Origin: a virus
Taxonomy: Duplodnaviria > Caudoviricetes
IMG/VR virus record: IMGVR_UViG_3300022923_000094
Location: 1-25,144 of that record
Strand: one strand, 5' to 3'
DNA length: 25,144 nucleotides
Shown here in pieces: positions 1,337-7,207 of the stretch. Made by a program: the position numbers and the translations under genes. Position 1 is the first letter of the stretch. The number at the start of each line of letters is the position of its first letter. The notes under the pieces were generated by a model. It was not told the origin of the DNA. It was given only the letters and a program-made list of their open reading frames with translations, and made no database searches.

Positions 1337-1608
1337 TGGGTAAGATGAAGGATCTGTTGATCGAGTTGCAAGAGACGCCGATCATGGTGCCATGTCCAGA
1401 TTGTTTGGGCGATGGGGTGATTGAGTATGAGATTGCTCGGCCTCAGAGTTTTACCCGAGACATTGGGTACTTGGACACGGCGACTGAAACGTGTGAGACG
1501 TGCAGCGGCGACGGTGAGATGGAGCGGCTGTGCGATTGTGGGATGCCTGTGACTAAGATCATGGGCCAAGATGCAGAGATATGTATGGAGTGTGCAGATG
1601 ACGCATAG
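1336..1608 (+). CDS. DnaJ-type zinc-finger protein
   Basis: CPDCLGDG and CETCSGDG (CxxCxGxG pairs) plus CDC and CMEC; GGAGG RBS before ATG 1336. Confidence 0.7.
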   Translation: MGKMKDLLIELQETPIMVPCPDCLGDGVIEYEIARPQSFTRDIGYLDTATETCETCSGDGEMERLCDCGMPVTKIMGQDAEICMECADDA

Positions 1609-1783
1609 GTTAGAGGTACTGATGCTTCCGAGTGTGATGGAGCAGGGGAACATTGCGTATGACAATGTGAAGGAATGGGACTTTAATTTGTCTCAAGGTC
1701 TTATGATTGAGTTGGAGGATGGGGCAGTGATTTACCTAAACCCGATGCATGTCATAGGTGTAGTTTGGAAAGAACTACAATAA
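1598..1783 (+). CDS. Hypothetical protein (61 aa)
   Basis: ATG 1598 with GGAG upstream; overlaps the previous stop and fills the gap. Confidence 0.55.
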   Translation: MTHRLEVLMLPSVMEQGNIAYDNVKEWDFNLSQGLMIELEDGAVIYLNPMHVIGVVWKELQ

Positions 1784-1786
1784 GGG

Positions 1787-1814
1787 GTTGACATGCGGAC
1801 CATCCGCATGCAAC
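1787..1814 (+). promoter_or_regulatory. Palindrome overlapping a -35 box upstream of the RAMP-like gene
   Basis: GTTG-A-CATGCGGA-CCA-TCCGCATG-CAAC; TTGACA at 1788-1793; no canonical -10 at 17 bp. Confidence 0.5.
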
Positions 1815-1857
1815 AAACAATTACTTTCAACTAGAAGCCAAGTAAGGAGAAAATATC

Positions 1858-2640
1858 ATGGCAACGAAGAAAGCACCACAAGAAGCGGCATTGGAAATTC
1901 AACCGTTGAAGCAGGGTCGCGTAAAGCTACGCATGATGGGCACGACCCCATTGTATTTTAACAGCATGAGTTCGAAGGCTATGCGTGATTTGTTGATTGG
2001 TGGCGGCAAGAAGACTGCTGCGCAGCGCAAAGAGATCAAGCACAATCCAGAGCAGGAGTACCGAGATTCGGTGTACAAGAAGCCGTTTGGGGAGACGTTA
2101 CTTTGTTTCCCTGCACCTGGTGTCAAGGGTGCGATGGCGACTGCTGCGTTGGAGACTGACGGTATTACGAAGACGAGTGTGCAGCGTTTGATCTTTTTGC
2201 CACAGACGCACGTTCAGATTTGGGGCAAGCCTCAGTTGAAGATTGACATGGTTCGGTCTGCGGACATGAACAAGACGCCAGACATGCGGACCCGTGCGTA
2301 CTTGCCGCGTTGGTGTGCGGAGGTTGACATTGCGTATGTGCAGCCGACTTTGTCTGCGTATTCGATTGTGTCGTTGTTGACGAACGCGGGATCGATTGTG
2401 GGTATCGGGGACTTCCGACAGGAGAAGGGCCGAGGATCGTTTGGCACGTTCCAAGTATTGACTGAGGACAGCATGGGTTCGTTCCAAGAGGAGTGGGATG
2501 AGTTGATGTTGGAGGGTCGAGATGTTCAGCAGGATGCGTTGGACAATCCAGAGTATGCGGATGATCAGACGGCGGAGCTTATGCAGTTCATGGCGGAGGA
2601 AAGATCCCGTCGGGATGTTACTCTCGTTGCTGCGGAATAA
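1858..2640 (+). CDS. Stand-alone Cas7/RAMP-like RNA-binding protein (candidate RNA-guided effector)
   Basis: N-terminal strand VKLRMMGTTPLYFN, FPAPGVKGAM (cf. the RAMP IPGSSLKG motif), C-terminal glycine-rich loop GIGDFRQEKGRGSFGTF; TAAGGAG RBS; adjacent to the periodic array. Confidence 0.75.
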   Translation: MATKKAPQEAALEIQPLKQGRVKLRMMGTTPLYFNSMSSKAMRDLLIGGGKKTAAQRKEIKHNPEQEYRDSVYKKPFGETLLCFPAPGVKGAMATAALETDGITKTSVQRLIFLPQTHVQIWGKPQLKIDMVRSADMNKTPDMRTRAYLPRWCAEVDIAYVQPTLSAYSIVSLLTNAGSIVGIGDFRQEKGRGSFGTFQVLTEDSMGSFQEEWDELMLEGRDVQQDALDNPEYADDQTAELMQFMAEERSRRDVTLVAAE

Positions 2641-2659
2641 TACTAGCATTAATAACAAC

Positions 2660-2685
2660 GGATCGGGGGCCGAGCGCCCCCATCC
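2660..2685 (+). other. GC-rich hairpin after the RAMP-like gene
   Basis: GGAT-C-GGGGGC-CGAGC-GCCCCC-ATCC; only a weak U-tract follows. Confidence 0.55.
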
Positions 2686-2820
2686 ATTTAGAGTTACAGC
2701 CGTGACCAACTGGCGAGAGGTGTCTCACATATGCACCGATGTTGGCGGCAAGCTGTGAGTGTCTTAACCGCAGCAATTAGAGGGAAGCTATTCTTCTCCG
2801 TTTCCTGATCTAATATTTTG

Positions 2821-3540
2821 GTCAAGGTTAGATATGTTGAGACGGTCTGGGTGAGGCGCGGTCGAGCACGTTCGGTTAAGGCGGGGTACGGTCCGGTTGG
2901 GTCAGGCGGTCCCGTTTCGTTTGGGTCTCACAGGGTTCGGCTGGGCAAGATGTGGTAAGTTTCGGTGTGGCGGTCAAGTTCAGGCGGGTCCACGTTTGTT
3001 ACGTTAAGGCGAGGTAAGGCGGTCGAGGTGTGACAAGGTCGGTTATGGCAAGTCGGGTTAAGACGGTCGGGGCACGGTCCGGTTTGGACGGGTTCGTTGA
3101 GTTGGGGCGCGGCACAGGCATGGCCCGTTTTGGTTTGGCGGTCTAGGTTGGGTACGGCGGTGTGTGTTGGGTTTCGTTGGGTCAAGGTTTGTTAAGGCGG
3201 TCGGGGTCATTCTAGGTGAGGCGTGATATGTTCGGTTAAGGCGTGGCCTGGTCACGGTACGGCGGTCTTGATTAGGTGCGTTCGGGTTAGGTTCGGTAGG
3301 GTGAGGACACGGTACGGCGGTCATGGAATGATAAGTTGAGGTATGTCGGGTTCGGTCAGGTCGTGTCATGGCGGTCTAGGTTGGGTGTGTTGCGTTGTGT
3401 CCCGTTGTTATGCGGTGTGTCATGGCGGTCCCGTTTGGGTGGGTCGTGTCATGGTTAGATCCGACAAGTTATGTCAAGGCGGTCGAGGCGCGGCATGATG
3501 AGTCACGTTGCGGTCAGTCGGGTCGCGGTACGGCGGTCAA
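2821..3540 (+). repeat. Non-coding array of GDY-NN pentamers punctuated by GGCGGTC; putative guide-RNA array (12 full units + 1 partial)
   Basis: GGCGGTC/GACGGTC at 2841, 2905, 2969, 3018, 3062, 3137, 3196, 3261, 3316, 3370, 3424, 3478, 3532; spacings 64,64,49,44,75,59,65,55,54,54,54,54 (5n+4, or 5n where one extra base is present); about 120 of 128 hand-parsed triplets fit G[G/T/A][C/T]. Confidence 0.9.
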
Positions 3541-3567
3541 CTAAACAGCTAGAAAAGGAGAAAAGAA

Positions 3568-4080
3568 ATGGCTGGTTTTCCAAAGAAAGAACGTCAAAGA
3601 ATTATTGACGATTACTTAGCGGCATCGGGCCGCAACATGTTTCATCCTGCGGAGTTCGTGGATTGGTTGGGTGGACAGCCTGACCATGAGGCGTATGAGT
3701 GGTTCTATGGGATGGAAGATCAAGAAGCTGCACGACAGTGGCGCATACAAATGGCGCGTCAGATGGCGAGTGGTCTGAGGATCGTGGTTCAAGAGTCGGA
3801 CCCCGAGGATCAGGTGGTGAGCATAAGCGTGAGGGAGTATCCTACGTTTATAAGTCCGGTGAGTTTACGCAAGAAGGGTGGCGGCTACGAGCGGTTTGAT
3901 CCTGACAGTGATGACTCGCAGCGTGAGTTGCGGCGACAGGCCGCGACGGCATTGGCGACCTGGTTGGGAAGATACCGTGGTTGTGCGGAGAATTTTGGGT
4001 TAAACTTGACAGCAATAGAGGAGATTGCGGAAGTTCTTAGAGAGAAAGGAGAGAGCGATGTTCAAGAAAATGTGGGATAG
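3568..4080 (+). CDS. Hypothetical protein, probable accessory of the RAMP/array locus
   Basis: AGGAG RBS at 3556-3560, just after the array; P.EFVDWL...PDHEAYEWF..EDQEAARQWRIQMARQ resembles a recurrent phage family; function unknown. Confidence 0.75.
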   Translation: MAGFPKKERQRIIDDYLAASGRNMFHPAEFVDWLGGQPDHEAYEWFYGMEDQEAARQWRIQMARQMASGLRIVVQESDPEDQVVSISVREYPTFISPVSLRKKGGGYERFDPDSDDSQRELRRQAATALATWLGRYRGCAENFGLNLTAIEEIAEVLREKGESDVQENVG

Positions 4081-4300
4081 GTTGACGCGCAAGCGACAGA
4101 CCAACCAGAAGCTGACGAGGAAGGAGCAGATCCTAGCTGAGTTGGACCGAGGAGTTGGGACTGCGAAGCAGTTGGCAGACCGCACTGGTTTAAAGCTGAC
4201 GATTGTGAGGGCGACGATGACGCAGTTACACAAAGCGGGAATGATCAGGGACACTGGCAAGAACGCGGGTCGTGAAGGTGTGTGGGAAGTTTCCCGATGA
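4058..4300 (+). CDS. Winged helix-turn-helix DNA-binding protein
   Basis: EQILAEL..GTAKQLADRTGLKLTIVRATMTQLHKAGMIRDTG...VW wHTH pattern; GGAG upstream of ATG 4058. Confidence 0.75.
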   Translation: MFKKMWDRLTRKRQTNQKLTRKEQILAELDRGVGTAKQLADRTGLKLTIVRATMTQLHKAGMIRDTGKNAGREGVWEVSR

Positions 4301-5532: not shown

Positions 5533-5765
5533 GCCTCATTGGGTTTACCTTTCTTGCCTTCGATCTGGTAATCTTTTTCTTTGGAGTAGCCACGGATCTG
5601 CGTGACGTTGTTGCGCTTCATGTTCTTGAGGAAGGCTGCGGCAATGTCGGGCGTGAACCCTGCCAGTTCCCCGAGCTCCCTTGAGGCGGAGTCCAGGTTG
5701 GTCCAGCCTTTTTTGTAGTCGCATACTGCTTCGATTATTTCGTCGTGGGTTTTAGTCTTAGCCAT
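5523..5765 (-). CDS. Hypothetical protein (80 aa)
   Basis: Follows and overlaps the helicase gene; GGAGAGG upstream on the - strand. Confidence 0.65.
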   Translation of the reverse strand: MAKTKTHDEIIEAVCDYKKGWTNLDSASRELGELAGFTPDIAAAFLKNMKRNNVTQIRGYSKEKDYQIEGKKGKPNEAKK

Positions 5766-7207
5766 TCTTTTGCTTCCTCTCCTAGAACCTTGGCTCCGAT
5801 GTTGATCTTGTCTCTGAGGGACTGCACGATCTTCTCGTCGATTGTACCTTCAGTGATTAGATCGATGTATGTTACGTTGTTCTTTTGTCCGATCCGATGG
5901 GCGCGGTCCTCTGATTGGATGCGCGTTTCAAGATTGAAGTCGTTGGCATAGTATACCACGAGGTTAGCTTCGGTCAAAGTCAGGCCGTATCCAGCGGTGG
6001 CTGGGTTGCCTACGAAGAAACGGAGCGGGTGGTTGGGATCTTGAAAGTTCTTGACGATGTTGTTGCGGTCATCGTCGGATGTGTCCCCGTAGTATGCAGC
6101 AGCGCAGCCGTCCCCGAAAGTTTCGTTTAGTGTACGCGTGATCTGTTGGATGTCGTATCGGAAACGTGACCAGATGATTGCTTTGCCTTCGTGCTCATCG
6201 AGTATTTCTTTGAGAGCATCCATGCGAAGGGACGGGAAGTACAGCATTTCGTCGTCGTCAGTCTTGAGGTGACCGGACATGATCTGTTGCAAGCGTAGCA
6301 TCTGCGTAATTACGGCGGGGGCCGTGGACATCTCACCGCTGTCGAGCATGACCATGGCGTTCTGCCGGATCTGGTTGTACATGTCCCGCTGCTCGGGGGT
6401 CAGGCCAACGTAGCGTACTGTGTACATTTTGTCGGGGAGATCGAGGCAGTCTTTCTTGAGCACCCGATAGGAGAACATGTCTATCTTATCGGTTAGCTCG
6501 TCGAGGTTTCGATATCCGACGATCTGTTGGAACGCAGATTGGCCCATGGTTTTCTTTTGTACGATGGCGTAGCGACCTTGGAATGCGTAGTAGGAATCGT
6601 ATCCCAAGAGACCTGGTCGTAGGAACTCGCACTGCGAATATATATCCATCGGACTTTTTGTCACGGGAGACCCTGTCAATAGTCTTTTGTACTTGAATCC
6701 CGATGCAATCTTCATCAAGTTCTTGGTGCGCTTGGCCTTGTGGTTTTTGATAGTTGTTGATTCGTCGATGGCGATCAGGCCATGAGGCCCAAGCGCACGA
6801 GACATCCACTCCCCTGCTTGCTTACCTTTCAAAGAAGAGAACGCTTCGACGTTCATGACAAAGATGGTAAGGCCATCGAACTTGTCCTTGACGGAGCGCA
6901 TTTCTTCCTGTTGTGTTTTGTTTGGTGATGCGACCCACCGAATCACTCGGTGCGGTACTTCATCGGACATGTGTTCGGGTATTTCTTTGACCACCCAGTT
7001 GCGATACACGCCCTTGGGTGCGATGACCAAAGCGAAGTTGATCTGCCCTGCGAGGTACAACATACCCATGTTGTCGATCAGAACTTTGGATTTACCTGTT
7101 CCCATTTCCATGAACAGTCCGAACTCTATTCGTCGCCACCCGTAATCAAGGGCCGTGGTCTGGTGCTCGAAGGGTTTTAATTTAAATTTGTAGTTGACAG
7201 ACATCAT
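5735..7207 (-). CDS. SNF2-family (SF2) helicase/ATPase
   Basis: MEMGTGKS Walker A, IDES Walker B, LLTGSP motif III, GYGLTLT motif V, QSEDRAHRIGQ motif VI; GGAGG RBS favours a start at 7204. Confidence 0.93.
   Translation of the reverse strand: MMSVNYKFKLKPFEHQTTALDYGWRRIEFGLFMEMGTGKSKVLIDNMGMLYLAGQINFALVIAPKGVYRNWVVKEIPEHMSDEVPHRVIRWVASPNKTQQEEMRSVKDKFDGLTIFVMNVEAFSSLKGKQAGEWMSRALGPHGLIAIDESTTIKNHKAKRTKNLMKIASGFKYKRLLTGSPVTKSPMDIYSQCEFLRPGLLGYDSYYAFQGRYAIVQKKTMGQSAFQQIVGYRNLDELTDKIDMFSYRVLKKDCLDLPDKMYTVRYVGLTPEQRDMYNQIRQNAMVMLDSGEMSTAPAVITQMLRLQQIMSGHLKTDDDEMLYFPSLRMDALKEILDEHEGKAIIWSRFRYDIQQITRTLNETFGDGCAAAYYGDTSDDDRNNIVKNFQDPNHPLRFFVGNPATAGYGLTLTEANLVVYYANDFNLETRIQSEDRAHRIGQKNNVTYIDLITEGTIDEKIVQSLRDKINIGAKVLGEEAKEWLRLKPTTK

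Follow-up and report, generated by a model that had tools for sequence, protein, structure and literature searches.

The window analysed here is a linear virus record of 25,144 nucleotides with a completeness of 44%, which carries genes for a DNA polymerase A, a primase, and SNF2- and UvrD-type helicases. Its polymerase is nearest to those of HTVC023P-type marine phages (46-53% identity), and DNA near-identical to the window is present in sequencing runs from salt-marsh, seawater, freshwater and mollusc sources. On the plus strand, an array of 12 units (2841..3538) sits between a gene for a 260-aa Vipr-like RAMP protein (1858..2640) and a gene for a 170-aa protein without a known family (3568..4080), a candidate accessory (vap) gene. 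The array displays the NN-GGY pattern with a five-base periodicity: its units have 8-14 slots, are built from pentamers combining NN with G(G/T)Y, and are set apart by G(G/A)CGGTC delimiters.

VIPR was described in 2026 as a CRISPR-like, RNA-guided gene-silencing system with guides made of alternating GGY/NN pentamers, about 9-16 in each; every NN pairs with two target bases, after which one base is skipped, mostly at the wobble position, and bound VIPR represses transcription (10.64898/2026.04.26.720920). Together, the Vipr-like protein, the array and the neighbouring gene, which has a homologue in 50 of 62 related loci, identify the locus at 1858-4080 as VIPR in the sense of that work. The top sequence match of the 260-aa protein in the PDB is the Vipr of SUSP1, both as a single sequence (E 0.032) and as a profile of 48 sequences (E 0.0031). 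The relationship is distant and significant only over the region of the glycine-rich loop (E 0.003); this loop, GIGDFRQEKGRGSFG, is invariant across the 48 sequences. A structural model of the protein (pLDDT 69) retrieves Csm/Cmr complex chains as the top Foldseek matches (best E 4.5e-05), with TM values of 0.3-0.4 against type III CRISPR complex chains. Searches with the protein against Pfam, NCBIfam and PADLOC gave no match, and no cas genes were detected among the 15 window proteins scanned. The 170-aa accessory candidate, whose homologue is the neighbour found in the 50 loci, likewise has no match in Pfam, NCBIfam or PADLOC; it groups with viral hypothetical clusters, and no tie to a named vap family was found.

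When the array is read by the one-base-skip rule, the wobble base being the one passed over, unit 5 and unit 2 each give a protein motif in frame, on opposite strands. Within the window, which represents 44% of the genome, no self-match is supported: the best self-match of unit 5 anywhere in the window is 6/12, and none of the guides with at least 7 scored slots exceeds the threshold on the window. Contigs bearing unit 5 occur in the RNA runs X19 and X20, as assembled contigs that carry no strand, end or level information. As regards the host, a Vipr 75% identical to that of the window comes from an assembly named Sulfitobacter.

The type II VIPR of Escherichia phage SUSP1 resembles the window locus in that a phage carries a RAMP-like gene together with GGY/NN guide units and a small accessory gene (a candidate one in the window), in the one-base-skip code with a skipped wobble, in using both strands with no self-match, and in apparently targeting conserved motifs of competing elements, a recombinase included; SUSP1 aims at the recombinase of its satellite (10.64898/2026.10.15.759431). 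The two differ in the length of Vipr (260 aa in the window versus 202 aa in SUSP1) and in the array, which in the window comprises 12 tail-less units with one-base-overlap junctions and many GTY/GAY scaffold variants, as against four tailed vrRNAs in SUSP1. At the junctions of the window array (CGGTC + CNNGG) one base is common to both neighbours. This fits the 'staggered' vrRNA arrays of the Fig. S18 legend in 10.64898/2026.04.26.720920, where consecutive units likewise have one base in common, at the end of the first and the start of the second.

Downstream of the Vipr stop, ahead of the array, lies a short GC-rich inverted repeat (2665-2690); it is possibly a processing or terminator hairpin, and a terminator scan gave it no score. 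No sigma-70 promoter-like site was found within 1600-4300. When the array is compared with those of related phages (L021-L082), whole units are seen to be gained, lost and shuffled as modules, and sequencing runs contain joints at delimiters that leave out whole units.

Decoding of unit 5 and its helicase family

Unit 5, a predicted guide (vrRNA) at 3062..3136 on the plus strand, opens with the delimiter GACGGTC (3062-3068), which is followed by 14 slots (3069-3136): GG AC CC TT CG TC GA GG GC [ACA] AT CC TT TT. By the one-base-skip rule it decodes to GTPFRSDGA-x-IPF-(F/L). The initial annotation had listed all 14 slots correctly, as both the sequence and our parse confirm, but had paired them with 13 residues only. 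Reading probably stops short of the last slot, because last slots are biased in composition (AA in 60 of 194 distinct guides, drawn from 325 units parsed in 51 loci).

A pattern made from slots 1-7 and 11-13 found 20 matching stretches among viral contigs, every one in frame and in an ORF with an upstream DExHH, while one control pattern with the slot order reversed had no match. A second, relaxed pattern, which admitted Arg and Ser/Thr alternatives and required G at slot 8, again placed 20 of 20 matches in DExH ORFs, the two scans overlapping by 9 matches. Requiring G-A at slots 8-9 yielded 1 match in viral contigs, 31 in metagenomes and 11 in genomes, every one reading GTPFR(S/T)DGA-x-IPF; four of the metagenome matches have no in-frame DExH, which probably reflects broken frames. 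The helicase reading proposed in the initial annotation is well supported at the level of the family, with matches above chance. That annotation had also noted that the motif III region (TGSPVTKS) of the phage's own SNF2 helicase (5735..7207, minus strand) does not correspond to the guide; indeed, unit 5 matches it in only 3 of 14 slots.

The genes so matched encode SF2 helicases (Pfam ResIII/DEAD) that have a DExH motif II, an SGTP motif III and a ResIII domain and, as a rule, an HNH nuclease at the N-terminus; in two members tested the HNH, ResIII and DEAD domains were all present (PF01844, PF04851 and PF00270). PIS_093 of Saccharomonospora phage PIS 136 is an example. The motif corresponding to unit 5, GTPFR(S/T)D-x-x-x-IPF, lies about 30 residues past the DExH. 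We take the guide footprint to be the end of motif III plus the next 11 residues, and the ResIII model ends at this footprint. In a set of 232 helicase proteins collected by homology and not by motif, 179 contain GTPF-x-x-D-x-x-x-[IMLV]-P, with I at the variable position in 172 and a following F in 172.

In viral contigs the helicase gene is found in early, replication or packaging regions. A conserved gene encoding a protein of about 190 aa follows it in 26 of 32 viral loci versus 4 of 41 metagenome or genome loci, counts in which 8 of the viral loci were seeds, some are near-duplicates, and five duplicate loci were omitted. This partner groups with viral hypothetical clusters, and in phages that infect many different hosts it comes immediately after the HNH-helicase (L007:11152-11721, L204:4919-5467 and L083:4985-5578, among others). 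Judged by gene order, the helicase and its partner form a putative two-gene phage module; our literature search returned no paper on such a module by title or abstract start. We also considered the helicase as an accessory nuclease of a host VIPR and rejected the idea, as a Vipr homologue was absent from 62 helicase loci, in which just 2 short runs rich in GC were seen.

The extra base and variation among guide copies

One slot of unit 5 departs from the regular pattern in having three bases, ACA (3114..3116), the position of the extra base being ambiguous (AC+A or A+CA). The base is inherited: of 12 copies of unit 5 in 62 related loci, 11 are full-length, all 11 retain it, and no full-length copy is without it. 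(One of these loci, L022, has an array identical to that of the window and may be the same phage.) Further, in 7 of 8 sequencing runs a contig spans the position gap-free, the eighth having no coverage there. Hence, it does not stem from faulty assembly. As the 179 helicases have exactly three residues between the D and the I, the three-base slot equals exactly one helicase codon, and the codon register is preserved across the extra base. The chance of AT CC TT following the extra base is about 2.5e-4 per register, or 7e-4 over three registers. The match shows that a helicase served as the source of the guide all the way through I-P-F; present pairing on both sides of the extra base, and with it the tolerance of bulges suggested in the initial annotation, is plausible. 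Odd slots are found in 49 of the 194 distinct guides of the clade as parsed, some of which are parsing artefacts.

The copies of unit 5 are constant at slots 1-4, 7, 8 and 11-13. At slot 5, CG is replaced by AG (Arg to Arg) in 2 of 12 copies; slot 6 has AC in place of TC (Thr for Ser) in 6 of 12 and AG in place of TC (Ser retained, with two bases changed) in 1 of 12; and slot 9 changes from GC to TC (Ala to Ser) in 1 of 12, with the biased last slot varying as well. These changes are seen again in independent sequencing runs. Among the 179 helicases, the residues facing slot 6 are S in 110 and T in 38, those facing slot 9 A in 13 and S in 12, and slots 10 and 14 face T in 12 and L in 33, respectively. 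The guide copies therefore switch only between codon families allowed by the helicase (Arg CG/AG, Ser TC/AG, Ser/Thr). That variants differing at slots 5, 6 and 9 still share the extra base suggests that adaptation of the guide went on once the base had been acquired.

A comparison of all 194 distinct guides with the 232 helicases points to the same family from a different direction. Nine guides reach a fixed threshold in three or more proteins, as opposed to none in each of 5 shuffles. Five of the nine are variants of unit 5; the remaining four (from L045, L047, L056/L060 and L057/L058) belong to six other loci and tile the N-terminal HNH of the family, W..DH.VP..KGGET.V.NGQALC..CN..KG, with correct spacing. 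The HNH guides could, however, be aimed at other HNH genes bearing that motif. A DNA-level count of guide matches on the loci gave 499 versus 6-11, a difference inflated because the loci were chosen with patterns from these guides, so that only the HNH hits are independent. One HNH is covered in tiled fashion by three neighbouring units of L045. A delimiter-like GGCGGT has been made inside guides by a one-base deletion (L045:3616-3780) and by an 11-base duplication (L082:501-590); staggered junctions may arise through such delimiter-creating changes.

Other guides of the array and the search for a target

In 10 of 66 loci, all 11 non-terminal slots of unit 2 (2905..2968, on the plus strand) match, on the opposite strand, the tyrosine integrase active-site motif EDLTFHDLRHEG; these loci are low-GC phage contigs (L135, L148, L150, L156, L173, L175, L182, L187, L188 and L190) whose annotated members form one group. 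As these are phage integrases, the array appears to be aimed at other phages, and an integrase target is in line with the published VIPR targets. Guides of relatives match an overlapping integrase motif, FHDLRHEAI, in up to 11/11 slots.

Unit 1 (2841-2904) decodes to C-(D/E)-ARTRKGTPC; a first scan with its patterns gave 0 matches and a second gave 3 copies of one chance antisense site. Unit 9 (3261-3315), which contains one three-base slot, decodes to (F/L)YARYS(S/R)D, resembling the N-terminus of a serine recombinase; its pattern matched 1 of 401 genomes versus 1 control match, and the match is not in a recombinase. Several guides of relatives (L026, L030, L045, L059 and L063) decode to GRC..LHGG..STGP, which resembles an HGGxSTG-type motif; the string 'HGGxSTG' was not found in the literature searched.

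Across viral contigs, metagenomes and genomes, no 14/14 or 13/14 slot match to unit 5 was found, and the exact helicase addressed by the guide is not among the family members collected. The best DNA matches reach 12/14 slots, as do 23 of the 31 metagenome and 8 of the 11 genome matches. Slot 10 as AC or CA occurs in 0 of the 43 G-A matches; a Thr at this position is found in 12 of the 179 helicases, and also in L011 and L204 (as ACG in L204). Most of the 12/14 matches are genes of cells that lack the partner; they come from genomes with the titles Vulcanimicrobiota, Dormibacterota or Rhodospirillales and are unlikely to occur in the host of the window phage. Three partner-bearing loci (L086, L098 and L109) attain 12/14 slots.

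Among Rhodobacterales, 0 of 301 genomes yielded the helicase protein in a search run without a positive control. In 401 Rhodobacteraceae genomes the unit-5 pattern was found in two, one being the centre genome and the other a chance antisense match in a cysteine-desulfurase-like gene, and the unit-2 pattern in none. The possibility that the helicase and integrase targets reside on one element was examined and rejected, the helicase being present in 0 of 10 integrase-phage records, which are mostly fragments.

Competing explanations and implications

We propose that unit 5 spells the motif-III region of an HNH-SF2 helicase and likely guides Vipr to silence this gene in a competing element of the same host, either a temperate phage or a prophage, given that it spells a conserved nuclease-helicase motif in step across the extra base. 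By analogy with SUSP1, unit 5 would be transcribed, cut out at the staggered junctions and coated by Vipr with one subunit per pentamer; each NN would pair with the first two codon bases on the template strand, the wobble being skipped, and the bound filament would keep the helicase from being transcribed, along with genes further downstream such as that of the ~190-aa partner. On the sequence evidence, the extra base at 3114-3116 may be looped out or its slot left unpaired, with pairing resuming in register to I-P-F. Slot 10 corresponds to a variable position of the helicase family, and a poorly read slot there would cost little.

The guide might address this same family with no pairing across the extra base at all, the nine slots on one side being sufficient and AT CC TT being either left over from acquisition or a staggered piece in its own right. 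We regard this as possible, if somewhat doubtful. An eight-slot short form does exist (in L029; runs X18 and X20 also show loose ends at 3107), and most three-base slots lie close to the end of a unit (penultimate in 14 of 26), as if marking the ends of guides. The SUSP1 literature also offers a six-unit footprint for vrRNA4 (10.64898/2026.10.15.759431) and a structure with one Vipr subunit per pentamer (10.64898/2026.04.26.720927). The latter report, however, has SUSP1 DNA engagement beginning at the guide 3' end, which is the side of slots 11-13. These slots, moreover, are constant in 11/11 full-length copies where slots 5, 6 and 9 have changed, and in L082 a scaffold base between them has changed while the slots themselves have not. 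A further HNH guide argues in the same direction: that of L045 has a one-base slot where L047 has AC and yet stays in register, with a CG to AG change behind it, although this one-base deletion also makes a delimiter.

Reading the guide as a counter-defence against a helicase of the host chromosome, an island or a plasmid, possibly an anti-phage nuclease-helicase, would agree with the mostly cellular origin of the best slot matches and with the presence of helicase relatives on 56 plasmid records, one of them next to integrases. We nevertheless consider it unlikely. The family shows partial helicase-domain matches to PADLOC models (best PbeA, E 9e-23), but NCBIfam matches fall below the cut-off and neither collection gave a full-length match to a defence model (2 members searched against each); the HNH members with the partner, for their part, are mostly in phage early regions. 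The sole match titled Rhodobacteraceae (L122) encodes HNH and ResIII, agrees in 12/14 slots and has no partner, but lies on a 4.2-kb contig that may be mis-binned. That the helicase reading is a matter of chance, or a by-product of the G/T-rich repeat composition, is scarcely credible: the exact target was not found and the patterns of units 1 and 9 gave only chance-level matches, but the counts of 20 versus 0 with the reversed control and 9 versus 0 with shuffles, together with the synonymous codon-family switches among the copies, speak strongly against it.

The preferred reading, in which Vipr is guided to a rival phage's helicase, departs from the published work in two respects, as unit 5 has the HNH-SF2 helicase family for a target, unlike the SUSP1 guides, and bears an inherited extra base, whereas the target searches in 10.64898/2026.04.26.720920 retained gap-free matches only and dropped gapped hits. 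In term searches, 'bulge' was absent from 10.64898/2026.04.26.720920, 10.64898/2026.04.26.720927 and 10.64898/2026.10.15.759431, and 'indel' from the available parts of 10.64898/2026.10.15.759431 and of the supplement of 10.64898/2026.04.26.720920; 'helicase' was absent from 10.64898/2026.10.15.759431 and appeared once, for vap genes, in 10.64898/2026.04.26.720920. A broader conjecture, which we rate as rather improbable, is that VIPR filaments read through one-base indels of the guide and that this marine clade repeatedly targets an undescribed phage HNH-helicase/partner module because the latter is an anti-superinfection weapon. If true, such read-through flexibility would be invisible to the published gap-free target searches.

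VIPR is newly described and programmable, its rules are still being set, and its arrays are now mined widely, as indicated by 10.64898/2026.10.21.760802. Unit 5 constitutes a natural test of the tolerance of the filament for a bulged guide base, a property relevant to the prediction of targets, the risk of off-target effects and the design of guides. The guide variants, in turn, suggest that the phage tracks Arg/Ser codon-family switches, an escape route left by wobble-skipping, and the repeated targeting of one nuclease-helicase family singles out a phage gene module worth testing.
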